NCBI GenBank assembly: GCA_038065835.1
Contig: JBBTQB010000007.1
Coordinates: 1 to 51,420 of the forward strand
From: Patescibacteria group bacterium
GTDB taxonomy: Bacteria; Patescibacteriota; Minisyncoccia; Minisyncoccales; Staskawiczbacteraceae
Length of the DNA: 51,420 bases
Reading direction: 5' to 3'
Notes under the pieces: model-generated
Databases searched by the model: none
What the model was told of the DNA's origin: nothing
The model's input: only the letters and a program-made list of their open reading frames with translations
Part shown: positions 3,279 to 51,369 of the stretch, in pieces
Layout of the letters: each line of letters opens with the position of its first letter
Position numbering within the stretch: position 1 is the first letter of the stretch
Translations under genes and position numbers: made by a program

Positions 3279-5748
3279 GGCATTTTTTAAACTTTTTACC
3301 ACCCCCACACCAGCATGGGTCGTTTCGGCCAATTTGGGTGTTGGTTGTTTGATTTTGGGTATTAGATATTTGACTTTGATTCGCTAAGTTTTCGACAATC
3401 CTTGGTTGCCGTTGTGGTTGTACTTGCGTCCCTGCTCTCAAAATATTATCCACAACTTCAAAATCTATCTGATTTAATAGTTGTTGAAATAATCTTCTGC
3501 CCTCGTTTTTGTACTCAACTAAAGGATCTTTACCACCGTAAGCTCTTAATCTTACTGAATCTCTCATATGGTCCATATTGGTAAGATGTTCCTGCCATAG
3601 CATATCTAAAACCCTCAAGTTTATAAACTTAGCGGTCTGATAAAAGTTTTCTTCGCCTAATTCTTTTTTCTTTTTTACTAACTCTTCGGCATTTTGTAAA
3701 TTGTTTATTGTATATTGTTTATTTTCTAGGATTTCTGGTTTAGAGTTTTCAAGAAGTGCCTTGCGCTTCTTGTATATAATTTCCCTGTGCTTATTCATTA
3801 CGTCGTCATATTCTAGCAAGTGATGTCTTGCGTCAAAGTTAAATCCTTCAATTTTTGCCTGTGCAGATTCTAGAGCCCCTGAAATCATTTTTGCCTGAAT
3901 TGGCTCGTCTTCTGGCACCTTTAAAGCAGACATTAACCCTTTAATCCTGTCCCCACCAAAAACTCTCATTAAGTCATCTTCAACAGAAACAAAAAATTGG
4001 GTTGACCCCGGATCTCCCTGCCTTCCAGACCTTCCTCTTAGCTGATTATCAATTCTTCTTGCCTCGTGTCGTTCGGTTCCAATGACATACAAACCACCTA
4101 ATCCCAAAACCCTTAGACTTTGCTCAGGGTCCTGGGGGTTGCCCCCCAGAATAATATCAACCCCGCGGCCTGCCATATTGGTTGCGATAGTTACTGCCCC
4201 CTTTTTTCCGGCTTGAGCTATAATTTCTCCCTCCTTTTCATGGTTTTTAGCATTTAAAATTTGGTGTGGAACGCCTTCTAAATCCAGAAGTTTTCCCAAA
4301 TACTCATTTTTTTCAACGGATCTCGTACCTACCAATACTGGCTGGCCTTTTTGGTTTAGTTCTTTAATTTCTCTTACTACTGCTTTTAACTTTCCGGCTT
4401 CCGTTTTAAAAATCTTATCCTCCAAATCTTTTCTTATCATGGGTTTGTTAGTTAAAACTACAGCAACATCTAATTTGTAAACTTTATCAAACTCTTCAGC
4501 TGAAGTTAAAGCGGTCCCTGTCATACCTGAAAGCTTTTTATAAAGTCGGAAATAATTTTGAAAAGTAATGGTTGCCAATGTTACAGATTCTGGCTGTATT
4601 TTCACGTCCTCTTTTGCCTCAACTGCTTGGTGCAGTCCCTGTGACCAGCGGCGCCCCGGCAGCATTCTGCCAGTGAACTCATCAATAATTATTATTTCGT
4701 CGTTTTTTACAACATAATCTCTGTCTTTTTGAAACAAAGATTTTGCTCTTAATGCAGATTCTAACTGATGAGTTGACGTTATGTCGTTTTCTGCCCAAGG
4801 GTCAGCCCCCAGATTTTTTACAACTTTATCTTGGCCGACCTCGGTAAAATGGACTGCTTTTAATTTTTCGTCAACTGTATAATCTTCATCTCTAACTAAG
4901 GGAGCTACAACTTTTGTGAATTGATGGTATTTTTCCGTTGGATCTTCTGCCTGCCCTGAAATAATTAGAGGAACTCGTGCTTCATCAATTAAAATAGAGT
5001 CCACTTCGTCAACAATGACAAAGTTATGCCCTCTTTGCGATTGCTGGCCCAAATCATAAACCATGTTATCTCTCAAATAGTCAAAACCAAACTCATGGTT
5101 GGTCCCGTAAGTTATATCAGCTTCATATGCTTCTTTTTTACTAACGGGCCTTAAATAATCCTCCACTACCTTAAAACCACCCACCGTGTCTCTTTTTTTA
5201 TCCAAATCGTTCCTTTCTAAATTTTCATTTTGATTTTTGATTTTTGATTTTTGATTTTCGTATACGTATCCTCCTTCATGAGTTATACAACTCACAGACA
5301 ATCCCAAGGCAGTGTAAATTTGTCCCATCCAAACAGCGTCTCTTTTTGCCAAGTAGTCGTTAACCGTTACAATATGAACTCCTTTTCCCTCCAAAGCATT
5401 TATATAGGCAGGCAGAGTGGCAGTTAAAGTTTTTCCTTCTCCCGTTCTCATTTCAGCAATTTTTCCCTGATGCAAGATAATTCCACCCATCAACTGTACA
5501 TCGAAATGGCGCTGATTTAGAGTACGCAGTGCCGCTTCGCGAACCAATGCAAAAGCCTCTGATAAAATATCATCTAAAGTTCCTCCTTTTGCCAATCTTT
5601 CCTTTAATTCTTTTGTTTTTTCTTTTAATTGATCCTCCGATAACTTCTGAATTTCTGGCTCAAGAGAATTTATTTTTTCAGTAATTGGCTGCAGGCTTTT
5701 GGCAACTTTTTGGTTAGAATCCCCAAAAATTTTAGTAAAAATAGACAT
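3268..5748 (-). CDS. secA: Preprotein translocase ATPase SecA
   Basis: Start taken at MSIFTKIFGDSNQK (ATG 5748); the longer ORF to 5817 reads through an upstream terminator hairpin. Walker/DEAD-type VIVDEVDSILIDEARVPLIISG. C-terminal zinc motif CWCGGGKKFKKCHGK. Confidence 0.97.
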   Translation of the reverse strand: MSIFTKIFGDSNQKVAKSLQPITEKINSLEPEIQKLSEDQLKEKTKELKERLAKGGTLDDILSEAFALVREAALRTLNQRHFDVQLMGGIILHQGKIAEMRTGEGKTLTATLPAYINALEGKGVHIVTVNDYLAKRDAVWMGQIYTALGLSVSCITHEGGYVYENQKSKIKNQNENLERNDLDKKRDTVGGFKVVEDYLRPVSKKEAYEADITYGTNHEFGFDYLRDNMVYDLGQQSQRGHNFVIVDEVDSILIDEARVPLIISGQAEDPTEKYHQFTKVVAPLVRDEDYTVDEKLKAVHFTEVGQDKVVKNLGADPWAENDITSTHQLESALRAKSLFQKDRDYVVKNDEIIIIDEFTGRMLPGRRWSQGLHQAVEAKEDVKIQPESVTLATITFQNYFRLYKKLSGMTGTALTSAEEFDKVYKLDVAVVLTNKPMIRKDLEDKIFKTEAGKLKAVVREIKELNQKGQPVLVGTRSVEKNEYLGKLLDLEGVPHQILNAKNHEKEGEIIAQAGKKGAVTIATNMAGRGVDIILGGNPQDPEQSLRVLGLGGLYVIGTERHEARRIDNQLRGRSGRQGDPGSTQFFVSVEDDLMRVFGGDRIKGLMSALKVPEDEPIQAKMISGALESAQAKIEGFNFDARHHLLEYDDVMNKHREIIYKKRKALLENSKPEILENKQYTINNLQNAEELVKKKKELGEENFYQTAKFINLRVLDMLWQEHLTNMDHMRDSVRLRAYGGKDPLVEYKNEGRRLFQQLLNQIDFEVVDNILRAGTQVQPQRQPRIVENLANQSQISNTQNQTTNTQIGRNDPCWCGGGKKFKKCHGK
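5228..5258. repeat. Heptanucleotide tandem repeat (TTTTTGA x about 4) inside secA
   Basis: GA dinucleotides recur at 7-nt spacing (5232, 5239, 5246, 5253). Encodes KSKIKNQNEN within a lineage-specific SecA insert. Confidence 0.85.
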
Positions 5749-5831: not shown

Positions 5832-6698
5832 TCAGTTGAAGCTCAGCTCAACAGCTGAGGCTTCGGGATGTTCACCGTGCCCGATGTGGGGTTGGTAATC
5901 TTTCTCATCCCGCCATTTGAGAACAGCAGATATGCCACTGCTCTCGTACAGCCGTCCCAACTCATCCTTGTATCCTGGCCGGAAGTGACGATGCAAGAGG
6001 CCATCAGTACCAATGAGTACCCATAACACCTGATGGAGGTGGTCGATGTGCACCATTGTTCGATATTGAAGAACGGTTGGATCCCCGTTTAGCGTGGCCC
6101 AGCCGCCCTTGCCGATGTTCTTGTTGGCGTAACGCACGCGCTTTTCCTGGTAGTGCGGGTAGTACAGATTCCAGGCTTCGCCTTTGTTGCCACCAGCTTG
6201 CTCGAGGCACTTGCCATAGGCATTAATGTCCTGCTCCTCGACTTCGTGAGCGGCTTGGTCGAAACCAGACACGAAGTGGTACCCTTCCAAATCCTTCCAG
6301 AGCTGGAAGCAATCTCCCCCTAGAAATGTGAGAGCGACGTTATCGAAAATCCGACAGATGGCGAAGCTTGCTCCGCCCACATCGTCTCCATTGCAAGGAT
6401 CTTTGCCGATGCTCTGGTGCATTCGGCGGACTCCATCGTTTGTCTGGCGGAGAAAAGAGTAGAGATCAATAGGGCCATTCAAGGCTGCCGCATTGGCAGT
6501 GAGTACTATTGAGGCCATTTGCCCTCCCGTAAGCCCGCAACACGGGTAACGCACGGGTGGGTGCTTTGGGCAGTAGGCTGCCGAGTCGCCATCCGCAGTG
6601 GCATAGACCTGAGCTTCGTCGTTGCAGGATACCGCATCCTCCCTGATAGCCCTCTCATCCGACGGTGGACGGGAGAAGGGTTTGGCAGAAAATCTCAT
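5832..6698 (-). CDS. PP2C-like (PF13672-type) putative Ser/Thr phosphatase, compositionally foreign
   Basis: ATG at 6698 (MRFSAKPF) preceded by GGAGAG. Motif series REDAV, ATADGDSAAY, GGASFAI, GGDCFQLW, IGTDGLL resembles PP2C_2 metal-binding motifs. Clearly G+C-rich relative to both flanks. Confidence 0.5.
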   Translation of the reverse strand: MRFSAKPFSRPPSDERAIREDAVSCNDEAQVYATADGDSAAYCPKHPPVRYPCCGLTGGQMASIVLTANAAALNGPIDLYSFLRQTNDGVRRMHQSIGKDPCNGDDVGGASFAICRIFDNVALTFLGGDCFQLWKDLEGYHFVSGFDQAAHEVEEQDINAYGKCLEQAGGNKGEAWNLYYPHYQEKRVRYANKNIGKGGWATLNGDPTVLQYRTMVHIDHLHQVLWVLIGTDGLLHRHFRPGYKDELGRLYESSGISAVLKWRDEKDYQPHIGHGEHPEASAVELSFN

Positions 6699-6782
6699 GC
6701 ATCTCTCCACTGAAATGTGCTACTGCAGAAACCAAATCCCCCGCAGTATGGGTGCTAAGCAGAAATGCAAAGCATAGTAAAT

Positions 6783-6811: not shown

Positions 6812-6851
6812 ACTAAAAAACCGCTACACCGGAGTTTTTAGTTTTTTATTT

Positions 6852-7205
6852 TTAGATAATTTCTCTCTTTGTTTTTCTGTACTTGCGGCGGGGCAGCTCA
6901 ACTGTTTTTGACTTATACTTTCTTATTTCTCTTTCCATCTCGCTCTTTACTTTTGTAATTACCCTGCCTAGATTTTCCCCATGAGACCTTGCCACCAGGT
7001 TGGTTCCGGGTAGATTAATCATTGCTTCTGATTTAAAAATATCTCCTTTACGATGGTGCTTTGTCTCTTTTTCTACCTCAAATAATAATTCTGAACTTTC
7101 CTGCAAATTTTTAACCAACTTTTTGAGACTTACCATTTTCTTATTAATTAAATTTTCTAGCGAATCAGTAAGCTCTAAATTTTTGGTCTTAATAATTATA
7201 TTCAT
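6852..7205 (-). CDS. hpf: Ribosome hibernation promoting factor / RaiA family (short form)
   Basis: 117-aa ORF. N-terminal MNIIIKTKNLELTDSLENLINKK and a basic C-terminus are typical of the S30AE/HPF family. Confidence 0.8.
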   Translation of the reverse strand: MNIIIKTKNLELTDSLENLINKKMVSLKKLVKNLQESSELLFEVEKETKHHRKGDIFKSEAMINLPGTNLVARSHGENLGRVITKVKSEMEREIRKYKSKTVELPRRKYRKTKREII

Positions 7206-7222: not shown

Positions 7223-8197
7223 TTAAAGGCCAATGAATTGCACTTCTATCTCTAATTCTATATTATATTTATTCTTAACCTTTTTCTTAATCAGTTCAAC
7301 TAATTTTAAAACATCTTTTGCTTTTGCTCCGCCTAAATTTACAATGTAATTTGAGTGCTTTTTTGAAATCTGGGCCTGGCCGATCTTTTTACCTGCCAAA
7401 CCGGCCCCAATAATAAACCAGGCTGAAGGTATAATCAAGAAAGGATCTTTTTTTACTTTGTCTAAAAAAAGTTTCTGTATTTTCAGCGTAACTTTTCTAA
7501 AGTCTACATTCTTAAATATGCTGCCTGCATTCGGGTATTCCAAGGGATGCTTTTCTTTCCGATATTCAATGTGAGAATTTGCGATATTTTTTAAATTCTT
7601 TTTAATTCCCTTAACTAGCTTTAACTCTGCTGAAATCACAGCCCAATTTTTTTCCTTGAAAATTGACGACCTATAAGAAAATCTGCATTGTTCATTAGAT
7701 AATTTCCTTAATCTCAATTTATTGTCTAATGCCTCAACTGTTAAAATTGAATCCTTTATTTCTCCGCCAAAAGCACCGGCGTTCCCCCTTATAGCTCCTC
7801 CAAATGTTCCGGGTAATCCCCCTGACCATTCTAGTCCCTGCAGGGATTTATCTATTGAAAACTGGACAACTTTACCCAGTTGAATGCCGGCTGGGGTCTG
7901 AATAATATTTCTCCTTTTTAAAATTATCGGCTCCTTATTTTGTAACTTAACTACCAATCCCTTTATTCCATTATCTGAAACTAAGAGATTACTTCCTCCG
8001 CCTAATACAAAAACCGGTAATTTTAACTTTTTAGCTATTCTTATGGCCCTTAAAAGATCTCTTCTTTTTCTTGCAAATAAAAAATACTCGGCAGGGCCGC
8101 CGATTTTAAAAGTTGTATGGTTTTTCATCAAAACATTTCTTTTTATACCTGTGAACTCCTTTTTAAGAATCAAAAAAGCATTATCGCCTCGTTTCAT
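7223..8197 (-). CDS. murB: UDP-N-acetylenolpyruvoylglucosamine reductase MurB
   Basis: 324-aa ORF. FAD-binding motifs FKIGGPAEYF and VLGGGSNLLVSD. C-terminal MurB domain (NAGSIFKN). Confidence 0.9.
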   Translation of the reverse strand: MKRGDNAFLILKKEFTGIKRNVLMKNHTTFKIGGPAEYFLFARKRRDLLRAIRIAKKLKLPVFVLGGGSNLLVSDNGIKGLVVKLQNKEPIILKRRNIIQTPAGIQLGKVVQFSIDKSLQGLEWSGGLPGTFGGAIRGNAGAFGGEIKDSILTVEALDNKLRLRKLSNEQCRFSYRSSIFKEKNWAVISAELKLVKGIKKNLKNIANSHIEYRKEKHPLEYPNAGSIFKNVDFRKVTLKIQKLFLDKVKKDPFLIIPSAWFIIGAGLAGKKIGQAQISKKHSNYIVNLGGAKAKDVLKLVELIKKKVKNKYNIELEIEVQFIGL

Positions 8198-8209
8198 GTT
8201 TCATGTTTC

Positions 8210-8268
8210 CCGCCTTCGCCAACCTGTCTGCGTGCGGATACGCACAGGCAGGAGCTATGGCGGGCAGG
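8210..8268. mobile_element. Family-C G+C-rich palindromic insert flanked by 8-bp direct repeats
   Basis: CATGTTTC at 8202-8209 and 8269-8276 flank a 59-nt imperfect palindrome (CCGCC...CCTGTCTGCGTGC-GGATAC-GCACAGGCAGG...GGCGG). It sits between the peptidase stop (8275) and the murB start (8197). Confidence 0.7.
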
Positions 8269-8274
8269 CATGTT

Positions 8275-9951
8275 TCATAACTTCAATAATTGATTAATTT
8301 TTGCTCTTGTTAAAACCCCCGCAAAGCCTGTTGATGAGATTTGGTACTTTTGTTGAAAACGAATTACTGCAGCTTTTGTAAGATTGCCAAAATACCCAGT
8401 TATAAGGCCTTCGGGATAAATATTTGAATCCTGGACTTTTAAAAATTGCTGCAGACACTTTACTTGGTCGCTTGCTTTAACACCAATATAAAGATTAACG
8501 CTTATTAAAGAGCAAAAAGAATTTGCGCTACTCCCTGCTTGTAAAGTGGCGATTTGTTTTTTTAAATAATCAATTTGCGCCAAGAGTTTTTGGATTACAA
8601 GCTGGTCTTCCTCTGGTACAGCCCCCGTAATTGAAACTTTAAAGGTATAAGGATAAGTAAACTCAAATCCGTCAAATCCTGAAGTTTTGGTATGTAAAAA
8701 AGGCATAATAACCAGAGAATTATATTTACTTCCAAAATTTTTAATGCTGATTTCTCCTTTTTCTTTTTGGTCTAACTGTATGAAATTTATTGAATAATTG
8801 TTATCCTTGTCAAAAATTATGTAGGGAACTGTAAAATCGAGTCCGGGTATGCTTTCAAATTCAAGCTTTAAGTCTCCATTGCCACCAATAATTTTTTGCC
8901 AGTTCCCTGACCAATTTTTCGTAACATTAGTAACTGACAAAGAACTATTTCCAGATAAAGGCAAGAAATTAAGAATTGGATTTATTCTTAAATTAGAAAG
9001 ATTTTTATTTAAAAAGCAATATTTTAAATCAGGAGAACAGTAATTAAGTGTCATGGCTATAGTCCAATTTGTAAAAATCTGTTTGAAATCCTCTTTATAT
9101 CCATTTTTCAAAAGGAGTTCATTTATACTGGCTATACCAATCAGCTTAGATTTTAACGAATCAGCTAAAATATTTATTCCGTAATGGTCTACTAAATAAT
9201 GAAAAAAAACATTTACCACTCCGTAGTCATGTTTTGTTTCCTGCCATTCAGTTAAAGAATCTGAGGGTTTTTCCAAAAAATCTTTAACTCTTTTTGCAAG
9301 ATTACTACTATCGTAAATATTATTGTATCCTAAAATGGTTGAAGCATAGTCTGCCCTTGCTTCATTCAACCAAACTTCTTCTTGCACACCATGCACTCTG
9401 TCTTTTTGATTAAAAGTTATCAAGTGAACAAACTCATGAGCTAAAGCAACTTTTAGCCTGGGGAAATTATCAATGTGAGCAATTGGCAAATAAAGCATCT
9501 CTCTTTCATTTGAGATTGGAGTTTGCAGTTTTATGTGTTCGTCTGCCGAACGGAAGTATCCGCCAACTCCATCTTTCATTGAATGGAACAAAATGGTAAT
9601 TCTTTTGTCGCCATCAACTCCAGGATTCCATTCAGATCCAAAAACAGAAGTTAGGATTGGATATATAGTACTGCCAAACTCCAGAGATAGGGCGTCTATA
9701 TAAGCTAAGATTTCACTCTGTTTTGCCGGTAATTGCGCTTCCCACCAGTTTTTTTCAACATAAAAATAAAGATTGGGGTAAGTTTTTACTAAAGTTGCTG
9801 AAATTTGTGATTTTTCACTAACTTCGAAGTTTTTATCCACATTAAAGTTTACGTAATCACTTGCATTGGCGATTTTGGCGAACGAGAAACTAAAAAAGAC
9901 AAAAACTAATCCTATAACAAAAAAAACAATTCTATATTTTTTCTTAGGCAT
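8275..9951 (-). CDS. Secreted gluzincin-type metallopeptidase with C-terminal peptidoglycan-binding domain
   Basis: Start uncertain (MPKKKYRIVFFVIGLVFVFF signal/anchor from ATG 9951). HEFVH plus WLNEARADY (HExxH...NExxA). C-terminal PG_binding_1-like YFGNLTKAAVIRFQQKYQI. Confidence 0.6.
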   Translation of the reverse strand: MPKKKYRIVFFVIGLVFVFFSFSFAKIANASDYVNFNVDKNFEVSEKSQISATLVKTYPNLYFYVEKNWWEAQLPAKQSEILAYIDALSLEFGSTIYPILTSVFGSEWNPGVDGDKRITILFHSMKDGVGGYFRSADEHIKLQTPISNEREMLYLPIAHIDNFPRLKVALAHEFVHLITFNQKDRVHGVQEEVWLNEARADYASTILGYNNIYDSSNLAKRVKDFLEKPSDSLTEWQETKHDYGVVNVFFHYLVDHYGINILADSLKSKLIGIASINELLLKNGYKEDFKQIFTNWTIAMTLNYCSPDLKYCFLNKNLSNLRINPILNFLPLSGNSSLSVTNVTKNWSGNWQKIIGGNGDLKLEFESIPGLDFTVPYIIFDKDNNYSINFIQLDQKEKGEISIKNFGSKYNSLVIMPFLHTKTSGFDGFEFTYPYTFKVSITGAVPEEDQLVIQKLLAQIDYLKKQIATLQAGSSANSFCSLISVNLYIGVKASDQVKCLQQFLKVQDSNIYPEGLITGYFGNLTKAAVIRFQQKYQISSTGFAGVLTRAKINQLLKL

Positions 9952-10007: not shown

Positions 10008-11864
10008 CTATTGGGTCTTATAATAGGGTGTAATATTTTTTAGGCCGGCAATAATTTCCTTGCTATTGCCTTTGTATAGTATATTTCTTAGTTTATTGAG
10101 ATCTTCCTTTATTGCATTAAAATTTACATCAGACATTTTTGCTATAAAAATCTTTTGGTTCTGCGTTACAACGGTTCCTTCTTCTGCCGTTAAAATTTCT
10201 TCGAATAATTTTTCCCCGGGTCTTATACCAGTAAAAACAATCGGTATATCCTTATCTGGTTTGTAACCTGATTGTTTAATCATTTCTTTTGCCAAGTTCA
10301 AAATTTTTATGGGTTTTCCCATATCTAAAACAAAAACTTCTCCTCCTTGGCCCATAGCTCCTGCCTGCATAACTAAAAGGCAGGCTTCAGAATTCAACAT
10401 AAAATATCTTTTCATTTCGGGATCCGTTACAGTAACTTCTTCTCCCCTTCTTATTTGCTCCCTGAATATCGGTATTACACTGCCCCTGCTATCCAAAACG
10501 TTTCCGAATCTTACTGAAATAAATTTCGTCTGATTTTTCTGATTATATGCCTGGCAAATCATTTCTCCGATTCTTTTGGTAGCCCCCATGACTGATATTG
10601 GGTTCACTGCTTTATCGGTGGAGATGAAAACAAGTTTCTCCACATCGCTTTGCAAGCTGGCTTTAACTAATATCTCAGTTCCAAAAATATTATTTTTAAC
10701 AGCTTGATCCGGCTGCATTTCCATTAAGGGTACGTGTTTGTAGGCCGCTGCGTGAAAAATTATCTGAGGCTTAAGGCTACTAAAAACATTTCTTATCTTT
10801 ATTTCATCTTTGATATCTGCAACGAATGATTTTATATCCAAACCGGAAAAATTTTTCTTGATTTCGCTTTCTACATTAAATATGCCTGTTTCATCTTGAT
10901 CCAAAAGTACTAACAAAGAAGGGTTAAACTTTGCAACTTGGCGTGACAGTTCAGAACCGATAGAGCCTGCGGCTCCAGTAATTAATACTCTTTTATCTCT
11001 TATAAAATTTTCAACTTGGCTTTTATCCAATGAAATCGGCTCCCTGCCTAATAAATTGCTGACATCAACATCTTTTAAGTTCTTTAAAGAAAGCTGGCTC
11101 TTGATAATAGCAAACACAGAAGGAACAATTTTTATTTTATACAAGCCGGCCTGTCGGCCTAGTTCAACTGCCTTTTTTATGAAATTATCGCCAGCCGAGG
11201 GAATGGCAATAATCAACTGCTTTATTTGGTGATTTTTGACAATATGGGGAATGTCTTGAATCTTGCCTAAAACCTTAATACCGTGGATTTTTACGCCTCT
11301 TTTAATAGGACTATCATCAACAAAACCAACAGGCAAGTAAGGATTTATTTTGGAAGATGAAATGTTTCTTAATATTTGCTCGCCGGCATCGCCAGCCCCA
11401 ACAATTAATGTCCTTTCTTTATTGGCCTTGCCACCTCTGCCTTTAATATTGAGATAAATCCTTTTAGAAAAACGAATCGCGCCACATAAGATAAAAACAA
11501 GAATATAACTTATAAAAATTGTTGATCGGGGAAAATTTTGAAAAAGGGGAAAATACTTGGAAATATAAATAGCAATAGCCCAAAAAATGAAGGCAATGGT
11601 GGTAGCTTTAAACAAAGATAAAGCCTCATTGACCGACACATAAGACCAGGAAAAAGAATACAATCTTTGGAAATAAAATATCGGTATAATAAAAACAACT
11701 GCCAGAATAGATAATCTCTCAATCAAAAAGTAATACCCGGGGGGAATCTCTCCCTCAAATCTTATAAAAAAAGAAAGCCAAATTGCCAAGGCAATAAAGA
11801 TAACATCGGCTAAAACAAAAAATAAAAATTTGATTATTGGATTTTCTTCAATTAAGTCCTTCAT
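10008..11864 (-). CDS. Membrane-anchored UDP-HexNAc 4,6-dehydratase (CapD/PglF/WbpM family)
   Basis: 618 aa. Four N-terminal helices, two Rossmann segments (LIVGAGDAGEQ, LITGAAGSIGSEL) and the CapD-type core. Confidence 0.85.
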   Translation of the reverse strand: MKDLIEENPIIKFLFFVLADVIFIALAIWLSFFIRFEGEIPPGYYFLIERLSILAVVFIIPIFYFQRLYSFSWSYVSVNEALSLFKATTIAFIFWAIAIYISKYFPLFQNFPRSTIFISYILVFILCGAIRFSKRIYLNIKGRGGKANKERTLIVGAGDAGEQILRNISSSKINPYLPVGFVDDSPIKRGVKIHGIKVLGKIQDIPHIVKNHQIKQLIIAIPSAGDNFIKKAVELGRQAGLYKIKIVPSVFAIIKSQLSLKNLKDVDVSNLLGREPISLDKSQVENFIRDKRVLITGAAGSIGSELSRQVAKFNPSLLVLLDQDETGIFNVESEIKKNFSGLDIKSFVADIKDEIKIRNVFSSLKPQIIFHAAAYKHVPLMEMQPDQAVKNNIFGTEILVKASLQSDVEKLVFISTDKAVNPISVMGATKRIGEMICQAYNQKNQTKFISVRFGNVLDSRGSVIPIFREQIRRGEEVTVTDPEMKRYFMLNSEACLLVMQAGAMGQGGEVFVLDMGKPIKILNLAKEMIKQSGYKPDKDIPIVFTGIRPGEKLFEEILTAEEGTVVTQNQKIFIAKMSDVNFNAIKEDLNKLRNILYKGNSKEIIAGLKNITPYYKTQ

Positions 11865-12982: not shown

Positions 12983-12986
12983 TAAT

Positions 12987-13391
12987 TTAGGATTTATGAT
13001 TTATTTTACGAACGACTTTTGCTGGAATCCCAAAAGCCACAACATTATCTGGAATGTCTTTGTTCACAAAACTAAAAGCTCCAACGATTGAATTTTTCCC
13101 GATAGCAACGCCTGGCATAACTACCGAGTGGCTCCCTATTTTGCAATTTTCTTTTAAAACAACTTTGGCATTTTTTTCTCCTATGCTGGAATAAGAATAT
13201 ATTGAGCAATGAGATCCTATTTGAACATAATCTTCAATTACAACACCGTTCTTGGCATTAATGTAAGTAAAAATTCCTATATCTGTTTTATATCCTAATT
13301 TTAGATTTTTTACATGCTGAACAACCCAGCCATATTTGGTTGGTTTCATTTCTTTAATCACCGGCTTTTTCCAATTTTTGAATCGTTCCAT
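12987..13391 (-). CDS. Left-handed beta-helix (hexapeptide) sugar N-acetyltransferase (PglD/WbbJ-like)
   Basis: Hexapeptide repeats IGSHCSIYSYSSIGEKNAKVVLKENCKIGSHSVVMPGVAIGKNSIVGAFSFV. ATG at 13391 preferred over GTG at 13400. Confidence 0.75.
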   Translation of the reverse strand: MERFKNWKKPVIKEMKPTKYGWVVQHVKNLKLGYKTDIGIFTYINAKNGVVIEDYVQIGSHCSIYSYSSIGEKNAKVVLKENCKIGSHSVVMPGVAIGKNSIVGAFSFVNKDIPDNVVAFGIPAKVVRKINHKS

Positions 13392-13400
13392 AGAAGTCAC

Positions 13401-13570
13401 GGAGGCAGGTCGCTCGCCTTATCGTCCTCGCTTCGCTCGGACTAGCTCCTCGACCCGCTTAGCGGGTCTTCGGTTCCGGCTCGCTCCTTAGAAACCCACG
13501 GTTTCTAACGTGTCCGCTTCGCGGCACTGTTTTCCTACACGGGGAAACCGAAGTTTCCCCGACCCCCTTC
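13401..13570. repeat. G+C-rich cluster of four or more stem-loops (intercistronic)
   Basis: GACCCGC-tta-GCGGGTC (13452-13468), TTAGAAACC-cac-GGTTTCTAA (13487-13507), CCGC-ttc-GCGG (13514-13524), CGGGGAAAC-cgaa-GTTTCCCCG (13540-13561). The last one is C(UUCG)G on the gene strand. Confidence 0.8.
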
Positions 13571-13603
13571 CAGTTGTATTAATAATAGTTAATCTAATAT
13601 GAA

Positions 13604-14302: not shown

Positions 14303-14455
14303 ACCCCGCTCAAATTTTGCCATCGCAATTACTCTTCTTACGATAAATCTGGCTAAAAAATTTGGACTCTTACAACCTGCGTGGGGCGAATAGCCCCATC
14401 CCTTGTTGAGCGAAGCGGGTTGCCACCCAGCGTCTTGCAAAATTTGAGCTGGGGT
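14303..14455. repeat. Large family-F-like structured element in the leader of the PIG-L gene
   Basis: 18-19-nt inverted termini ACCCCGCTCAAATTTTGC (14303-14320) and GCAAAATTTGAGCTGGGGT (14437-14455), closely resembling family-F termini. Internal hairpin TGGGGC-gaata-GCCCCA. G+C-rich. Confidence 0.75.
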
Positions 14456-16914: not shown

Positions 16915-16981
16915 GGGTGTTTGGTGTTAGGTTTTGGCTTATAACGATTCCCCGTTATCTAATACCTAACACCTAAAACCC
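16915..16981. repeat. Intercistronic long hairpin
   Basis: GGGTGTTTGGTGTTAGGT (16915-16932) pairs with ACCTAACACCTAAAACCC (16964-16981) at 16/18 positions. Inner ATAACG-attcc-CGTTAT contains the CCCCGTTA word. Confidence 0.75.
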
Positions 16982-16993
16982 ATCACCTAGCGC

Positions 16994-21898: not shown

Positions 21899-23503
21899 TT
21901 ATAATTTTAGATACTTCTCTAAAAGTGGCACTTTGACGTTCTTTAATCTATCAAGTCCGAAGGGTAGTAGGCATAAAAGGGCTAAAAATGCCGGCATTCT
22001 AATTCTAGTTATCATGCCAAAATTATTTATGTAAAGAGACAAAACTCCAAAAATAAGAAGACTGAAAATAATTAAAGGCAAGATAACTTTGTAATTTACT
22101 TTTATGGATTTTAGCATACCCTTTATAATAAAGAATAGCAGAAAATACCAGGGGATTACTTCTGGCAAAACAAAAAGGTGTTTGGCTTTTTTTAACTGCC
22201 AGGGGAAGGGACCCAAAATAGAGTAAACAAAAGATAAGGAATTGCTTTTAAGAAATGAAATGGGATTGTCAAAACCAGCATCTATTACAATTGAGGAATC
22301 TTGAGCTATTGTACTTTTACCCTCTGGCAGAGGTATGGTTTCTTCTGCTTTTTTGGTTTCTTGAAGCTGAGATTTTGGGGGATAAGCTAGTTCTCTATAA
22401 CCAACAATTGTTTGGGGATTTAAAAAATTTTTAATAGCTTTTACACCCATATATCCTTGAGTAGCTCCGTCTAATGGAGCAATTCTCGGCAAAAAACCAA
22501 GAAGAAGAATCATTATAATTCCATAAATAACTCTTTTTTTAATTCTTAAATCACAAAAGCTAAACCAACAAATTATGAAACTTAAAATAAGTGCATAACC
22601 AATATAAAAACGGAAATGGGTCACTCCAGCCAACACAATATAGAAAATCAAAAAATTTAACCAGGAGAATTTTTTAATTATCTTTAAGGTCAACAACAAC
22701 CCAATAACGCTCAGTAAAACAACTAAAGCATCTTTTAATAACAAACTTCCGTAGAACGCCAAAGAGGGGTAAAAACAAACAATTAATCCCACAATGAAAC
22801 CTTCTTTTTTTGAACGACCTATTTGACAAACCAATAAAAAAACAAATACGGCTATGAGGGCAACTATCCAAGCGTTAAGCAACTGACCCATCAGCATGCT
22901 GGGAACTGTTAGAAGATAAACATAACCAATAGCAAGCGGATAGTAGTGGACCAGCGGCAAACCTAAGAATGGTAAACCTTCTAAAGAAAAATTTCCCGCA
23001 GAAACTCTTTTTGATATTTCTAGTGCAATTGCATGATATTCATTGAAATCTCCCCTTCCCTCACTGAATGGTTGAAAATCTGCATAATATACAAAAACAA
23101 CCATTACGATATGAATCAAAAAAACAATTAAAAAGAGTAGGGTTAAAAACTTTACCGTTTCCCCGCCCGCATCGCTATGCCAGCCTGCATTACCTGCGTT
23201 ATTATGTCTGGCAGGCGAAGCATTGCGGGCAGGCTTTTCTTTTACCCAGTTAGAAAGCTCTGCTTCTTTTTTCTCTTTTTCTAAAAAAGGACTATTGTTT
23301 GTTAAAATATTGCCCTTTCTAACGGGGTTTATTGTGTTAATAAAAAATAAAGCAATAGAAGATAAAAAAACAACAAATATAGCTCCTACAGCCAAATCTT
23401 TGTCAATCAAGGAAAGCAAAGCTAATATAATACAGATTAATATAACTTTATGATACCTTGAAAATGATTCTAAAAAATCCACCTCGTTAGAAGTTATGGG
23501 CAA
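21899..23503 (-). CDS. Polytopic membrane protein, GT-C-like (ArnT/PMT-type) or glycan polymerase/ligase; N-terminus built from repeats
   Basis: 534-aa ORF with at least 9 hydrophobic helices. An acidic loop GDFNEYH follows the helix FLTLLFLIVFLIHIVMVVFVYY. The first ~125 codons overlap three repeat copies, so the start is uncertain (TTG 23503 or GTG 23482). Confidence 0.4.
   Translation of the reverse strand: MPITSNEVDFLESFSRYHKVILICIILALLSLIDKDLAVGAIFVVFLSSIALFFINTINPVRKGNILTNNSPFLEKEKKEAELSNWVKEKPARNASPARHNNAGNAGWHSDAGGETVKFLTLLFLIVFLIHIVMVVFVYYADFQPFSEGRGDFNEYHAIALEISKRVSAGNFSLEGLPFLGLPLVHYYPLAIGYVYLLTVPSMLMGQLLNAWIVALIAVFVFLLVCQIGRSKKEGFIVGLIVCFYPSLAFYGSLLLKDALVVLLSVIGLLLTLKIIKKFSWLNFLIFYIVLAGVTHFRFYIGYALILSFIICWFSFCDLRIKKRVIYGIIMILLLGFLPRIAPLDGATQGYMGVKAIKNFLNPQTIVGYRELAYPPKSQLQETKKAEETIPLPEGKSTIAQDSSIVIDAGFDNPISFLKSNSLSFVYSILGPFPWQLKKAKHLFVLPEVIPWYFLLFFIIKGMLKSIKVNYKVILPLIIFSLLIFGVLSLYINNFGMITRIRMPAFLALLCLLPFGLDRLKNVKVPLLEKYLKL
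23161..23234. repeat. Family-C G+C-rich imperfect palindrome, intragenic
   Basis: GCCCGCA...TGCGGGC, TCGC/GCGA and GCCAG/CTGGC pairings. Shares the words GGCGAAG, GCGGGCAGGC and CCTGC with 8210-8268. Read in frame as ...ARNASPARHNNAGNAGWHSDAGGE... Confidence 0.7.
23244..23328. repeat. Family-B-type element, intragenic, opposite orientation
   Basis: Termini ACCCAGTTAGAAAG (23244-23257) and CTTTCTAACGGGGT (23315-23328), 13/14 complementary. Read in frame as NPVRKGNILTNNSPFLEKEKKEAELSNWV. Confidence 0.75.
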
Positions 23504-23670
23504 AATGTCATATGGGACATTTTGCTTACTCTTTGTTAATTTTTATTATTTACCTTATTTTAACCCATTGAAGTTTTAATTATCCTCATACAAACCCCGT
23601 TAGGGGTTTGTTTCTTTTGCATTTACCTTAAAACTCCTTGACCTCTAACGGGGCAAACTTCTAACGGAGT
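23481..23670. repeat. Family-B stop-to-start palindromic element (long copy 2)
   Basis: Termini ACCTCGTTAGAAGT (23481-23494) and ACTTCTAACGGAGT (23657-23670). Nested pair ACCCCGTTAGGGG (23594-23606) and ACCTCTAACGGGG (23641-23653). TGA of the upstream GT4 at 23671-23673 abuts it. High similarity to 33804-34027. Confidence 0.9.
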
Positions 23671-24687
23671 TCATCTTAAAACGTTATTGATTAAATCCAG
23701 CCATTCTTGGTTAAACCTTTCTATAGTAAAATCTTTGGCGTAATTATAACCTATCTGACCGATTTTTTTTCTTTCCTCTGAATTATTCAGTAAATATTCC
23801 ACCTTCTGTTTTAATTCCTTAAAATCGGTGCAAATTATCTGTCCCCCATTCTCCAATAACTCTCTCATTCCACCCATTCCAGAACCAATTGTAGGCACTT
23901 TCAAAAGCATTGCCTCATGAGTGGTCATAGACCAACCCTCTTTAAATTTAGACATCGTTACAACAACGGAAGATGCTTTCAGCAAGATTAAATAATTTTT
24001 ATAATCTAAATCAAGATTTAGCGTTGGGACTTCAACTTCTTTTCTGCCAGAGGTAACAAGATAAACATCTAAGTCTTTAAGCGCTTCATAAGCATCAACG
24101 ACACCTTTTGGTTTTTGACAGTTTCCAAGATATACTATCGGTTTTCCTTCTAACTTATATTTTTTCTTAAACTCTGAAACTTCTTCTGCTGTAATGTTAA
24201 AATTATTCATACTAAACCCGCAATAAATTTTGCAGACATTTTTGTATCCTTTCTCTAAAAAATAATTCTTCCAGTATTCAGATATTACAACAGTAGCATC
24301 TGCTCTTTTTACCTGAATGTAAAAAAAAGTTTTTTCTAATAAGGGTAACAGCAATCTTGGAATTAAACGAAACCCCGAAAAATCAATGTGAAAAATCAAA
24401 GTTAAGTTTTTGCCTCTTGTATTTTTTTTATTTAATGTGATTGTTGAATAAAAATCTCTTATCCAAAGGTCTTTTTTGCCTCTAAAAAACAAAAGCTTTA
24501 TAAAAGACTCTAAACTTTTAAGGTATCTGTTTTTAAAATAATTTGCCTCTAAATTTACGTACTCTACATCAAAAGTTCCAGATAAGGTGTTAATAACTTG
24601 ATTTTTGTAAATATTCCCCCCAGATCTTTTTGAAAAAATGTTAATCAAACCGATAGTTTCCATGATAGTTATACTGTTTCCCTCCAA
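23671..24687 (-). CDS. GT4-family glycosyltransferase
   Basis: 338 aa. C-terminal EGWSMTTHEAMLLKVPTIGSGMGGMRELLENG (E-x7-E). The true start may be ATG 24663 (METIGLINIF). Confidence 0.7.
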   Translation of the reverse strand: MEGNSITIMETIGLINIFSKRSGGNIYKNQVINTLSGTFDVEYVNLEANYFKNRYLKSLESFIKLLFFRGKKDLWIRDFYSTITLNKKNTRGKNLTLIFHIDFSGFRLIPRLLLPLLEKTFFYIQVKRADATVVISEYWKNYFLEKGYKNVCKIYCGFSMNNFNITAEEVSEFKKKYKLEGKPIVYLGNCQKPKGVVDAYEALKDLDVYLVTSGRKEVEVPTLNLDLDYKNYLILLKASSVVVTMSKFKEGWSMTTHEAMLLKVPTIGSGMGGMRELLENGGQIICTDFKELKQKVEYLLNNSEERKKIGQIGYNYAKDFTIERFNQEWLDLINNVLR

Positions 24688-25897: not shown

Positions 25898-25921
25898 GTT
25901 ATAATGTACAAACATGGCGCG

Positions 25922-25963
25922 CACAGACACCGGGTGTCTGTGAGGCTGGGTGTCTGTGAGGCT
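25922..25963. promoter_or_regulatory. Iteron-like 10-mers (GGTGTCTGTG, two direct plus one inverted)
   Basis: CACAGACACC (25922-25931) is followed by the 16-nt unit GGGTGTCTGTGAGGCT repeated in tandem (25932-25947, 25948-25963). Directly downstream of the ParB-like gene terminator. Confidence 0.75.
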
Positions 25964-27729: not shown

Positions 27730-28882
27730 TTTCTAGAAACTGCCACTCTTTAATAATATTTTTAATATCAAAATCCAATGCTCTTTTTATTGATTTTTCT
27801 TTAAGTTCATTTAATAAATTTTCATCTGAAAGGAGTTTTACCGCGGCCTCGCTTAATTTATCTTTATCCCTTGGCCTTACCAATGTCCCGTATTCTGCAT
27901 ATTCAATATCTTCTGTTTCAAAACCGAAATTAGTATCGGGAGCTAAAATCTCCCTTGGTCCAGATTTACAATCAAAAGAAACAATGGGTAGACTGCAAAC
28001 CATTGCCTCTAACAGAACATAGGGCAAACCCTCCCACAAAGAAGATAATAAAAAAAGTTTTGACCTTGCAAGAAATTTAAATGGGTTTTTCTGCCACCCA
28101 AGAAAGTAAATATCTTTATCTAAACCTAATCTTTTTGAAAGTTCTTTTAATTCTCTCTCCAGCTCTCCCTGTCCGAGAATCACTAATTTTACATTTTTTA
28201 TTTCCTTCTTTATCTTTAAAAATGCTTCTATTAGGCTTTTTTGATTCTTTTGAAAAGTAAGTCTGCCCACATTTATAATAACAGGATTATCAAATATTTC
28301 TTGATACTTTGTTTCAAGAGGTTCTTCTGCTAATTTTTCAATTTCTTTTACATTTAAGGGGTTGTAAATTACTTTGATTTTATTAGCTTTTACCCCAAAA
28401 TTCTCAATTAAATCTTTAGCGGAAGCTTTTGACACATCAATAACAAAATATGCTTTGTTAAAAAACCTCTTAATAAAAAATTTATAAATTCTGCCGCCTA
28501 AATCATAACAAGAATTGGACAAAAATCCTTCTACTCTGACAATAGCTCTTTGCTCCCTGCCTGCCGGCAGGCAGGCGGAAAGAATATTGATGACGTTGGC
28601 AGGATGCCCGAAGCTTATTACATAGTCTGGATTCTCTGTTTTAACTATTTTCCTAAACTTCAGTAAACCCAGTAAATAATGGAAAATCTTGGAAAACGGA
28701 TTTTTTAGCGGTAAGGGAATATTTAAGGAAATTAAATTTCCTTTATAAGGATAAGAAACTTCTTTTTTAAATAAAACAATAACCCTCTCCATGGACTCGG
28801 GCAAATTTAAAGAAAGTTCTGAAACTACCCTTTCTCCCCCGCCAATGCTTAGAGTTGGTATTAAAAATAAAACCTTCTTCAT
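27716..28882 (-). CDS. GT4-family glycosyltransferase
   Basis: Start taken at MKKVLFLIPTLSIGGGERV (ATG 28882); the longer ORF to 28945 reads through the 51-bp palindrome. EGLPYVLLEAMVCSLPIVSFDCKSGPREIL. Carries the 20-nt palindrome at 28556-28575 in frame. Confidence 0.8.
   Translation of the reverse strand: MKKVLFLIPTLSIGGGERVVSELSLNLPESMERVIVLFKKEVSYPYKGNLISLNIPLPLKNPFSKIFHYLLGLLKFRKIVKTENPDYVISFGHPANVINILSACLPAGREQRAIVRVEGFLSNSCYDLGGRIYKFFIKRFFNKAYFVIDVSKASAKDLIENFGVKANKIKVIYNPLNVKEIEKLAEEPLETKYQEIFDNPVIINVGRLTFQKNQKSLIEAFLKIKKEIKNVKLVILGQGELERELKELSKRLGLDKDIYFLGWQKNPFKFLARSKLFLLSSLWEGLPYVLLEAMVCSLPIVSFDCKSGPREILAPDTNFGFETEDIEYAEYGTLVRPRDKDKLSEAAVKLLSDENLLNELKEKSIKRALDFDIKNIIKEWQFLENANN
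28556..28575. repeat. 20-nt perfect palindrome CCTGCCTGCCGGCAGGCAGG (copy 1, inside GT4)
   Basis: Identical to 28997-29016. Read as ACLPAGR. Confidence 0.95.
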
Positions 28883-28897
28883 GAAATATCGATGCTT

Positions 28898-28948
28898 AGA
28901 GTGCAGGATTCGAACTATCATCAATTGATAGTTCGAATCCTGCACTCT
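28898..28948. repeat. Family-A 51-bp perfect palindrome (23-bp arms, 5-nt loop)
   Basis: AGAGTGCAGGATTCGAACTATCA-tcaat-TGATAGTTCGAATCCTGCACTCT. Contains the TGA stop of the methyltransferase and ends 15 nt before the GT4 ATG. Confidence 0.95.
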
Positions 28949-29946
28949 TTAGCGAATAGGCACATACGAATTATTGGCTGCATTAGTATGCATTTGCCTG
29001 CCTGCCGGCAGGCAGGTATATTGGTATCGCGGTTTATTTGTAGTTCAACAAACATTATTCCGTTATTGCGACCCGTTAATCTTCCAAACGTCCACAAAAA
29101 AAACGCCGGGACAAATCCTATTAAATACATCTTAATCTTTGCCAGAATATACAGTACCTTGGCAAGCAGAGAAGATTTTTTGTTTTCAATAGAATTGCTA
29201 GCCGTCCTAGCTGCTAATCCTGACCTAAATCTGCCGTCTATTGCGCCCATTATCATTTTAAACTGCTCTACATAGCAAAAATCCGATATTTCAAAGTTAA
29301 TTTTTGAAAATAAATTAGAAATTGCCTCTTTATTCCACCTTGTGAGGTGATGTGGGGGGAAATCCCAATTATTCCAATTTGCCAGCATGCGTTCCCTAGA
29401 TGGAGTGCTTATTATCATCTTTCCCCCCGGTTTTAACAACTTCTTTGCGCTTTTGATGAATTTCAAAGGATCTTGGACGTGCTCTATCACTTCAAAAAAG
29501 ACAACATAATCAAACAAGGGCAAATTTTGCCTTTTAAAAAAACCTTCAAATGGTTCAGCAAATACATTTTTTAAGCCAAAATATTTTTTGGCTAATTCAA
29601 TGCCTTTTCGGTCAAAATCAACTCCAAAAACCGTATATCCTCTTTTTTCCAGTTCAGCAATAAACTCTCCCGAGCCGCAACCTAGTTCAAGTACGGCAGT
29701 ACCTGCTGGAAACTGCAAATACTTCTGTAAAAACTTTTTGTGGGACCCGCGATATATCTTTGGGCCTATTACATTTTTTATTTCGTAATCGCTTGTCTCT
29801 TCATACCAATGAGCTCCTGGGTTTTTCGCGCCCCAAAAGAATTGCACCTTACAATCTTTGCATTGGTACATAAAAAACTCATTATATTTCATGATGGGTA
29901 TTAGTTCTCTGCTTTCTTTACAAATTGGGCAAACATTGGGATTCAT
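28921..29946 (-). CDS. Zinc-ribbon + class I SAM methyltransferase with membrane helix; repeat-encoded C-terminus
   Basis: CPICKES...CKDCKVQ. Motif I VLELGCGSGEF. Helix MYLIGFVPAFFLWTF. The last ~30 codons run through the 20-nt palindrome and the 51-bp palindrome. Confidence 0.7.
   Translation of the reverse strand: MNPNVCPICKESRELIPIMKYNEFFMYQCKDCKVQFFWGAKNPGAHWYEETSDYEIKNVIGPKIYRGSHKKFLQKYLQFPAGTAVLELGCGSGEFIAELEKRGYTVFGVDFDRKGIELAKKYFGLKNVFAEPFEGFFKRQNLPLFDYVVFFEVIEHVQDPLKFIKSAKKLLKPGGKMIISTPSRERMLANWNNWDFPPHHLTRWNKEAISNLFSKINFEISDFCYVEQFKMIMGAIDGRFRSGLAARTASNSIENKKSSLLAKVLYILAKIKMYLIGFVPAFFLWTFGRLTGRNNGIMFVELQINRDTNIPACRQAGKCILMQPIIRMCLFAKECRIRTIN
28997..29016. repeat. 20-nt perfect palindrome CCTGCCTGCCGGCAGGCAGG (copy 2, inside methyltransferase tail)
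   Basis: Identical to 28556-28575. Read in a different frame as PACRQAG. Confidence 0.95.
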
Positions 29947-33805: not shown

Positions 33806-34027
33806 CCCGTTAGAAGTATGGGCAAAATGTTAATCATGAGACCTGGTCTTATCAACGAGGCCGGGTCTCGTTGTGACAATTTGCTTGCTCTTTGTTAATA
33901 ATTATCATATTAAATTTTGACTCATTAAAGCTTTTTACTACCTTATCCAAACCCCGTTAGAGGTTTGTTTCTTTTGCATTTACCTTAAAGCTCCTTGACC
34001 TCTAACGGGGCAAACTTCTAACGGGGT
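33804..34027. repeat. Family-B stop-to-start palindromic element (long copy 1, with nested insert)
   Basis: Termini ACCCCGTTAGAAGT (33804-33817) and ACTTCTAACGGGGT (34014-34027). Nested pair at 33951-33964 / 33998-34010. A 44-nt G+C-rich insert (33831-33874) splits a hairpin that is intact in the 23481-23670 copy. Confidence 0.9.
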
Positions 34028-37228: not shown

Positions 37229-37284
37229 ACCCGGTTAAATAGCCCAAGGGGCTAATTTCGCAAAGCGAAATTATTTAACTGGGT
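37229..37284. repeat. Family-F structured element, intergenic copy
   Basis: ACCCGGTTAAAT (37229-37240) and ATTTAACTGGGT (37273-37284). Hairpins AGCCC-aag-GGGCT and AATTTCGC-aaa-GCGAAATT. Followed by the tandem repeat (AAATCGT x3). Confidence 0.85.
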
Positions 37285-37308
37285 AAATCGTAAATCGTAA
37301 ATCAAAAA

Positions 37309-51297: not shown

Positions 51298-51369
51298 TTG
51301 ATTATAGAACAGTTGGCTTTGCTGTATCTTTTTTTCGTAATCCAAAATTAAATCAATGATTTTACTTAA

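Follow-up and report, generated by a model that had tools for sequence, protein, structure and literature searches.

A 51,420-nucleotide (nt) stretch of a Patescibacteria group bacterium genome (contig JBBTQB010000007.1, hereafter the window) contains a G+C-rich hairpin between murB and the gene upstream of it, flanked on both sides by the direct repeat CATGTTTC. The original prediction took this repeat for a duplicated target site and the arrangement for the clearest footprint of transposition in the window. Our analysis points, on balance, to another reading. The segment at 8209–8268 is a copy of a hairpin repeat resembling repetitive extragenic palindromes (REP) and the Rickettsia palindromic elements (RPE), lying in register within a tandem array of ATGAAAC heptamers, and the 8-bp repeat is better taken for one period of the array plus a coincident base than for a duplication left by a staggered cut.

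Direct reading and a pattern search both place CATGTTTC on the plus strand at 8202–8209 and 8269–8276, on either side of a 59-nt imperfect palindrome (8210–8268; 67.8% G+C in a window of 35.2% G+C), exactly as had been described. The pattern search also found a third, overlapping copy at 8195–8202, which brings the total at the locus to three, and Tandem Repeats Finder (TRF) reports GTTTCAT ×2.7 at 8191–8209. Removal of the palindrome together with one repeat copy (8210–8276) does restore the predicted compact junction, TGA-AACATGAAAC-ATG, yet three heptamer units are still present on the minus strand (TT-ATGAAAC-ATGAAAC-ATGAAAC-GAGG). When 8209–8268 is deleted instead (60 nt, with ends defined by the family described below), a perfect (ATGAAAC)4 results. 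The repeated unit is 7 nt long; the eighth match comes from the G that ends the hairpin. Since flank repeats of at least 8 nt occur in only ~0.1% of random pseudo-elements of the same length, the CATGTTTC repeat is neither a chance match nor independent of the heptamer array. The caveat attached to the original prediction, namely that the duplication could be pre-existing microsatellite sequence, is therefore the better reading, given the three units that outlast removal of the insert, the TRF call and the frequency of such arrays in the window.

In minus-strand order, which is the mRNA sense, the junction reads …AAG TTA TGA AAC ATG [CCT GCCCGCC ATAGC TCCTGCCTGTGCGTATCCGCACGCAGACAGGTTG GCGAA GGCGGG] AAAC ATGAAAC ATGAAAC GAGG…, with the element in brackets. 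This sequence recurs without a single difference in two further Hainich groundwater assemblies (L002 and L003; loci outside the window are labelled in this way throughout) and the Logan contig L001 ends inside the hairpin, so the structure, seen in four independent assemblies in all, is not an assembly artefact. The composite element (8209–8268, minus strand; 60 nt, 68% G+C; CCT tag and GCCCGCC ... GCGAAGGCGGG) was delimited from the sequence, its fold, covariance models and the family ends seen in 118 copies. It begins with an unpaired 5′ tag, CCT (8266–8268; consensus C-Y-T in the position profile of the 118 copies), followed by the outer left arm, GCCCGCC plus ATAGC (8254–8265; GCCCGCC-GWAGC in the family, alignments A5 and A7). 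The outer loop holds nested inner hairpins (8220–8253), CCTGCCTG...CAGACAGG around GTGCG-TATC-CGCAC, which were recognized by comparison with L012, L028, L018 and the viral contig L256 and are related to the stand-alone palindrome CCTGCCTGCCGGCAGGCAGG. According to the fold and the alignment, the outer right arm GCGAAGGCGGG (8209–8219) pairs with GCCCGCC, and GAA opposite ATA/GAA forms an internal loop. The 59-nt stretch folds into a long imperfect hairpin of −34.9 kcal/mol on the minus strand (z = −3.7) and reaches −42.9 kcal/mol on the plus strand (z = −5.3). No exact or near-exact copy of the 59-mer was found elsewhere in the window, and generic repeat finding left it ungrouped.

Comparison with related genomes supports the hairpin as a real, lineage-specific insertion. 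Homologues of the upstream protein are numerous in Candidatus Staskawiczbacteria and other Parcubacteria; those most similar outside the strain are 70–72% identical. Three of the closest loci and 80 species-representative loci were compared, the source species itself not being among the GTDB representatives, and murB directly follows the gene in ~38 of them. The junction is compact in most of these syntenic species: stop and start overlap as ATGA in L005 (CAATGAAAAGC), L007, L010, L016, L034, L041 and L045, and in other relatives murB starts a few bases within the upstream gene or after a spacer of 1–20 nt. Neither a G+C-rich hairpin nor the heptamer repeats, which the original prediction had proposed to look for in insert-free relatives, occur at the junction in any of the ~38. 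The proposed comparison with related genomes thus yielded compact junctions without the insert, but no true empty allele; contigs of the same strain were all identical and carried the insert. A few lineages have expansions of their own. At the peptidase/murB junction of L004 (3359–3429), an unrelated 46-nt perfect palindrome is followed by a T-run in a terminator-like arrangement; that of L035 (11723–11880) has a spacer of ~150 nt with G+C-rich inverted ends, and longer spacers are also found in L025 and L067. The junction has therefore been remodelled several times, with the hairpin and heptamers specific to the present lineage.

The flanks of other family members were then compared, with element bounds set at the family ends (from the tag to GGCGGG) and a slack of ±2 nt. 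Flank repeats of at least 8 bp occur in 2 of 116 copies (1.7%, against 0.1% of controls), of at least 7 bp in 3.4% (against 0.3%) and of at least 6 bp in 6.0% (against 1.6%). The two copies with at least 8 bp are the 8209–8268 element itself, el1, and L116, each of which lies inside a heptamer array, and el1 alone among the 12 copies from its own lineage has an exact abutting repeat. Imperfect flank similarity over 14–20 nt or a partial arm duplication is seen in L022, L083 and L073. A fixed-length duplication is not a property of this family. The palindrome as an insert is thus supported, by the ~38 compact junctions and by its family membership, but the 8-bp repeat as a target-site duplication is not, and neither is the expectation that each family copy would have its own 8-bp duplication. 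With duplications absent from the other family copies, the arrangement is not supported as a footprint of transposition.

Sequence comparison supports the assignment of the insert to a family of hairpin repeats present at many unrelated loci. The family form consists of the tag CYT and GCCCGCC-GWAGC … GCGAAGGCGGG, and the whole tagged element can be outlined as CTT-GCCCGCCGAAGC…GCGAAGGCGGG; the present copy has extra hairpins in its loop. A nearly identical two-level element is found at two unrelated sites, L012:16951–17001 and L028:20136–20186, in frame within a metallophosphoesterase open reading frame (ORF) and within the ORF of a NifS-like cysteine desulfurase, respectively. At the site in L018 orthologous to that of L012 (17571–17600) there is a 30-nt short form (CTTGACCGCCGAAGCTTTAGCGAAGGTGGT); the long form is therefore the short form with a CCTGCC…GGCAGG hairpin in its loop. 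A covariance model (R2) built from 49 short-form copies, with el1 left out, matches el1 with E = 1.2e-4, and model R1 matches it with E = 9e-12. Across 1.3 Mb of DNA from relatives, R2 detects 12 copies, or ~1 per 100 kb.

Ten of these 12 lineage copies lie within long ORFs and have lengths divisible by 3, unlike el1, which is intergenic. In-frame insertions are found in L012, L018 and L067 (metallophosphoesterase), L028 (NifS-like), L022, L069, L073, L081 and others. The first six intragenic copies suggested a single shared reading frame, an idea that was rejected because 4 of the 6 frames are in use. One insertion hot spot is a surface loop of the metallophosphoesterase (GHTH.PW^EEK…NPG): it is empty in ~12 species, and elsewhere it has received independent in-frame inserts that point either way and belong to three or more hairpin types (L012:16951–17001, L018:17571–17600, L067:18109–18141, L016, L017, L029 and L011). 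Older copies in this loop have drifted to A+T-rich codons while the peptide insert was kept (L035 and L043 compared with L067).

The palindrome related to the inner hairpins, CCTGCCTGCCGGCAGGCAGG, is a perfect 20-nt palindrome that also stands alone, at 28556–28575 and 28997–29016 in the window and at L018:4765–4784, L035:1299–1318 and L067:4227–4246 in relatives. One of the window copies lies in a GT4 glycosyltransferase ORF (…SACLPAGREQ…) and the other belongs to the 3′ tail of a methyltransferase ORF; these stand-alone copies showed no duplications at their flanks. A weak family match (E = 0.08) occurs in secA at L030:4327–4361, where the window (5590–5625) encodes RLAKGG. There the insert swaps K for RHNAAAL, and the native codons, TTGGCAAAAGGAGGA, loosely resemble joined element ends. 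The enrichment of GGCAGGCAGG in relatives was considered as a sign of further copies and rejected, since most matches are the conserved SecA coding motif RGRSGRQGDPG. A further G+C-rich long hairpin on the minus strand at 23160–23234 (CCTGCCCGCAATGC…GCGGGCGGG, ~−41 kcal/mol) is probably the other copy that the original prediction had placed in the same family (its 'family C'). It was not accepted as a member, having only the CCTGCCCGC start and GCGGG end in common with the family (R1 E = 0.33, no match to R2), and is treated as a related hairpin; no 8-bp flank repeat is present. The ORF around it extends a membrane protein at the N terminus, and homology to relatives begins only downstream of the hairpin, at residue 139; the hairpin is therefore probably located 5′ of the real start, and its in-frame status is doubtful.

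The family extends well beyond Parcubacteria. A scan of metagenome and viral contigs with the pattern GCCCGCCNNAGCN{4,34}GCGAAGGCGG gave matches at at least 120 metagenome loci and 70 viral loci, adding more than 190 further copies on host contigs of 32–72% G+C. Exact protein look-ups assigned three of these contigs to Patescibacteria (L106), Kiritimatiellia/Verrucomicrobiota (L102) and Planctomycetes (L126). In the tag profile of 118 copies, the counts are 76 C at position −3, 69 T with 36 C at position −2, and 71 T at position −1; position +1 after the stem is G in 94 of the 118, and NN is mostly GA or GT. The apical pair covaries (UA 26, CG 13, GC 3), 98% of stem cells are paired and the core measures 30–36 nt (alignment A7). 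Both the strong bias at positions that the pattern leaves free and the covariation of the apical pair show that the matches are not due to chance. In the viral contig L256 (63% G+C), a CCTGCCTGCGCAGGCAGG hairpin is nested in the element loop.

Outside Patescibacteria the copies are mostly intergenic, and for 20 of the 194 a tRNA gene is no more than 100 nt away. Such zones account for ~1% of bases, giving an approximately 10-fold excess. Many of the tRNA-near copies (L092, L118, L124, L178, L203, L169, L179, L150 and others) lie right against the tRNA, at its 5′ or 3′ end, and mostly share its orientation, and in L169 and L179 copies behind tRNA genes are followed by terminator-like T-runs. 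A gene between two inverted copies in L150, beside tRNA genes, was considered as a REP-associated tyrosine transposase (RAYT) and rejected: it is a 112-aa ORF without apparent function or transposase features, though profile libraries were not scanned. PLSDB plasmids gave no convincing family match, the 12 nt shared with an ISDra2 ωRNA probe are most probably a coincidence, and literature searched by sequence strings and by topic, with incomplete coverage, returned no description of the family. Tentatively, and as a possibility rather than a probability, we suggest that these copies represent an undescribed cross-phylum family of ~30-nt 'CYT-tagged' hairpin micro-elements that spread without duplication into ORFs (in frame), tRNA spacers and hairpin loops, and that have a mechanistic link to period-7 arrays as targets or products. 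If so, a widely distributed mobilising activity would have to exist.

Among the known systems, the family is of the REP/RPE kind, with features of its own. The tagged REP described by Di Nocera et al. 2013 (PMC3733652) comes nearest as a concept. RAYT tyrosine (HUH) transposases are the presumed mobilisers of the GTAG- and CGTC-tagged REPs, and intragenic REPs are reported in that article for several species. Like the tagged REPs, the present elements are ~30-nt G+C-rich imperfect palindromes that bear a short, conserved, unpaired tag at one terminus, leave no target-site duplication and have variable loops; they occur as single units, some of them intragenic, and in the Planctomycetes–Verrucomicrobia–Chlamydiae (PVC) superphylum. 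Their tag, unlike that of REPs, is (G)CYT rather than GTAG or CGTC; where GTAG does occur, in some copies, it is confined to the GWAGC arm inside the element. Whereas REPs are mainly extragenic and, according to Nunvar et al. 2010 (PMC2817692), usually number more than 100 copies per genome, the Parcubacteria sample has ~1 copy per 100 kb, 10 of 12 of them intragenic. Further differences from REPs are that one sequence is kept across phyla of 32–72% G+C and in viral contigs, and that no RAYT was found by tblastn with approximate queries in 2.64 Mb, a weak test. RPE are cited in PMC3733652 for in-frame insertions in protein-coding genes. The present family resembles them in behaviour: palindromes enter ORFs of a small A+T-rich genome in frame and encode short peptides at tolerant loops, and old copies decay to host composition while the peptide insert stays. 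The host phylum differs and the sequence probably does too, el1 is intergenic, and the elements measure 30–60 nt. RPE-1 measures roughly 100–150 nt.

MITEs (miniature transposable elements with inverted repeats), the DDE-transposon derivatives that include Correia/NEMIS, are likewise short, non-coding and built of inverted repeats, with multiple dispersed copies near and inside genes. The present family differs from them in having no consistent target-site duplication and no inverted repeat apart from the hairpin stem; no parental insertion sequence was identified, and no transposase ORF was seen beside the copy examined (L150). Because no duplication is found, the family cannot be classed with MITEs. 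Members of the IS200/IS605 family insert without duplication, and the hairpin-defined ends and the short conserved sequence 5′ of the hairpin recall their single-strand hairpin transposition, but no TnpA or TnpB is nearby, no conserved target tetranucleotide is evident outside the element, and the element is a single hairpin of only 30–60 nt. Finally, a G+C-rich stem-loop right behind a stop codon is reminiscent of an intrinsic (Rho-independent) terminator. At this junction the stem is followed by AAACAUGAAAC (AAACATGAAAC), with no U/T run, and for lack of a U-tract the element does not qualify as a terminator. A terminator and promoter scan of the junction gave nothing above chance. Rfam gave no match in the window at gathering scores and, for 8100–8400, only irrelevant sub-threshold matches at E ≤ 10.

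These comparisons suggest how the junction may have arisen. The 60 nt at 8209–8268 are one copy, in the 'long' form, of a small non-coding G+C-rich hairpin repeat. The repeat is made up of a CYT tag left unpaired, a stem of GCCCGCC/GGCGGG, a GWA/GAA internal loop and an apical stem that varies, the long form having one or two CCTGCC…GGCAGG-type hairpins nested in the loop. The copy was gained in the present lineage at an ancestrally overlapping or nearly overlapping stop/start of the ATGA type, and it splits a short ATGAAAC tandem array exactly in register. We infer a duplication-free mechanism of spread, candidates being HUH single-strand hairpin transposition in trans (IS200/IS605 or RAYT) and recombination or template switching. 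The left part of the array, ATGAAAC-ATG (8269–8278, minus strand), contains the upstream stop TGA (8275–8277) and the right part, AAAC-ATGAAAC-ATGAAAC (8191–8208, minus strand), the murB start codon (8195–8197), so that heptamer copies would supply an intact upstream TGA on one side and an intact murB ATG on the other. This would explain how the insertion was tolerated in an operon whose murB is normally translationally coupled. Sequence reading further predicts a 25-codon mini-ORF (MPARHSSCLCVSARRQVGEGGKHET*; 8194–8271, minus strand), which begins 3 nt past the upstream stop with the ATG at 8269–8271, crosses the hairpin and closes in an ATGA overlap with the murB start. Its frame (…ARRS…EGG) is the one used by the intragenic copies L012, L018 and L028. 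If translated, it could preserve coupling, with ribosomes melting the hairpin. In the polycistronic mRNA the element would form a hairpin of ~−35 kcal/mol, which, in the absence of a U-tract, would not be a canonical terminator.

Heptamer arrays are a general feature of this genome segment. Eleven non-redundant period-7 arrays occur in the window, where 7 is the commonest short tandem period; most lie at gene junctions or in spacers, and they include those at 52–69, 3700–3723, 5228–5258, 6833–6855, 12985–13004, 16916–16989, 37283–37303 and 38641–38670. One, TTTTGAT ×4.4, lies inside secA. The array at 12985–13004 spans a compact stop/start junction that lacks a G+C-rich insert; within it lies the stop codon, 4 nt ahead of the next gene's start. 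Given arrays this common, including one at an insert-free junction, a pre-existing microsatellite at the murB junction is plausible.

Several observations nevertheless weigh against an insertion that merely happened upon such an array. The heptamer array is as lineage-specific as the insert, since none of the 38 relatives has it at the junction, and the nearest relatives, at only 66–72% protein identity, include no true empty site. Arrays of period 5–12 abut 12 of 122 elements, compared with 2.6% of positions (3.8 times the background frequency). Five independent copies interrupt arrays of exactly period 7 in register, in very different genomes and with unrelated units, namely ATGAAAC at el1 (window 8191–8278), GGGGAAC in L116, TGGTCAT in L135, CTTGGAC in L187 and AGCATCG in the viral contig L245; three more copies lie in arrays of period 9–10 (L148, L109 and L161). 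These numbers hint that arrays and elements are mechanistically linked rather than coincident, although the excess is suggestive and not proven because both are largely confined to non-coding DNA. As regards the flanks, 4 of the 12 lineage copies score at least 16 in a flank-to-flank alignment, compared with 2.9% of controls, and most copies in the duplication test come from other phyla. The mobilising enzyme, too, was not found: tblastn with IS200 TnpA and E. coli RAYT as approximate queries gave no match in the 2.64 Mb of loci, which is weak evidence.

The same facts could mean that the array is a consequence of the element, through repeated insertion and precise excision, tandem duplication of the element with its flank followed by loss of one hairpin, or replication slippage at a stalling hairpin. 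The lack of an array in relatives, the frequent abutment and the in-register copies all fit such a scenario, as do a partial tandem duplication by L073 of its own left arm and the imperfect 14–18-nt flank repeats of L022 and L083. Yet heptamer arrays are common in the window without any element, more than 90% of the copies have no array, the shared restriction to the small non-coding fraction would by itself inflate co-occurrence, and simple slippage could not restore a whole unit at each edge of the insert dividing it. We regard this scenario as unlikely. Still lower we rank MITE-like transposition as originally predicted, with a 7–8-bp staggered cut duplicating GAAACATG (or AAACATG) in a pre-existing three-unit array, which we consider rather improbable. 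It would account for the exact 8-nt identity abutting both ends; flank repeats of at least 7 nt are ~10 times as frequent as in controls, though rare (3.4% against 0.3%), and the period-7 bias of the in-register cases would suit a 7-bp duplication. A 7-bp duplication inside a 7-bp array is, however, indistinguishable from none, 96% of copies have no flank repeat of at least 7 bp although the elements are well preserved, and the other 11 lineage copies all lack an exact repeat at their edges. Apart from the hairpin itself the element has no terminal inverted repeats, and a transposase was not detected.

Two further explanations rank lower still. It might be kept as an RNA element, acting as a stabiliser of the upstream 3′ end, a processing site or an attenuator of murB translation, its repeat origin being secondary. 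The mRNA strand does fold strongly (−34.9 kcal/mol, z = −3.7), and CUUG-like loops and GAA/GAA internal loops, which are typical of RNA structures, count in favour. The adjacency of 20 of 194 copies in other phyla to tRNA genes, mostly in the same orientation, suggests co-transcription and processing, and L004 has its unrelated perfect palindrome with a T-run at the equivalent junction. Against this, the element has no U-tract, no terminator call and no Rfam match, ~38 relatives manage without the hairpin, and most lineage copies are inside ORFs, where such a role is unlikely; we judge this explanation very improbable. The palindrome might alternatively have originated locally, by template switching or palindrome growth, and resemble other copies through convergence of G+C-rich hairpins. 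The nested structure can be read as stepwise palindrome growth, and a 16-nt stretch (CCATAGCTCCTGCCTG) at 8245–8260 on the minus strand is identical to 10352–10367 on the plus strand, in inverted orientation within a capD-like gene 2.1 kb away; shuffled sequences give an expectation of 0 for such a match. In the capD-like gene, CCATAGCTCCTGCCTG falls in a conserved coding motif, MQAGAMGQGG, and since the stretch belongs to the family consensus in L012, the identity is probably a coincidence or a common motif. Nearly identical outer and inner arms at unrelated loci of other species (L012, L028), together with the covariance matches and the conserved unpaired tag in more than 190 copies, argue for common descent, and a local origin can be almost dismissed.

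The preferred reading, a hairpin repeat copy lying in register in the array, would have implications beyond this junction. A direct repeat flanking a palindrome is no evidence for staggered-cut transposition when that repeat is one period of a microsatellite. Tiny G+C-rich hairpin repeats colonise the ultra-small A+T-rich genomes of Patescibacteria, reaching even essential genes (a SecA candidate, the NifS-like protein and the metallophosphoesterase), and the repeat sequence is common to distant phyla and phages. Should the family really move between phyla, it would be a compact marker of a mobilisation mechanism, on which the recurring in-register heptamer association could give a handle. It would also supply insertions in protein loops and remodel operon junctions in streamlined genomes.

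The genes on either side of the junction are both encoded on the minus strand and were assigned by domain search. The upstream gene (8275–9951), called a peptidase in the original prediction, encodes a PG_binding_1 protein with an HExxH motif, which has a 558-aa form in other assemblies; murB (7223–8197) encodes FAD_binding_4 and MurB_C domains. Farther downstream on the same strand, between secA and a ribosome hibernation factor gene, a 292-aa ORF (5832–6710) has 54.8% G+C in a genome of 35%. It is conserved in L005, with 52% G+C there, and has no Pfam match; its motifs ADGDSAA…GTDGLLH are, we presume, reminiscent of PP2C-type phosphatases.

Several other repeats and hairpins were noticed in the window. 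Sequences resembling the 3′ half of a tRNA (…GGATTCGAACTATCATCA) occur at both window ends (26–64 and 51367–51400) and at 28885–28951, where the copy takes the form of a 54-nt palindrome at the junction of two ORFs; ARAGORN predicts no tRNA gene in the window, and these copies may be attachment-site-like repeats or assembly breakpoints. A 184-nt intergenic region of 60% G+C with several stable hairpins (13388–13571) and a 69-nt G+C-rich hairpin region (14372–14440), neither with a meaningful Rfam match at E ≤ 1, may represent further hairpin-repeat families or unannotated RNAs. Within an ORF of the uracil-DNA glycosylase family (951–1634), positions 1050–1105 form a G+C-rich nested hairpin of ~−40 kcal/mol (…CCGCTTCGCTTTGCGAAGCGG… within GGTCAAAT…ATTTGACTGGG). 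An A+T-rich intergenic repeat family of 78–118 nt (23557–23674, 30076–30153 and 33914–34031; 72–87% identity) contains a ACCCCGTTAGGGGT hairpin and lies upstream of three minus-strand genes, possibly as a common terminator/promoter module. Lastly, the G+C-rich intergenic segment at 25909–25962 contains a perfect tandem 16-mer (GGGTGTCTGTGAGGCT ×2) that forms a hairpin with the upstream CACAGACACC.

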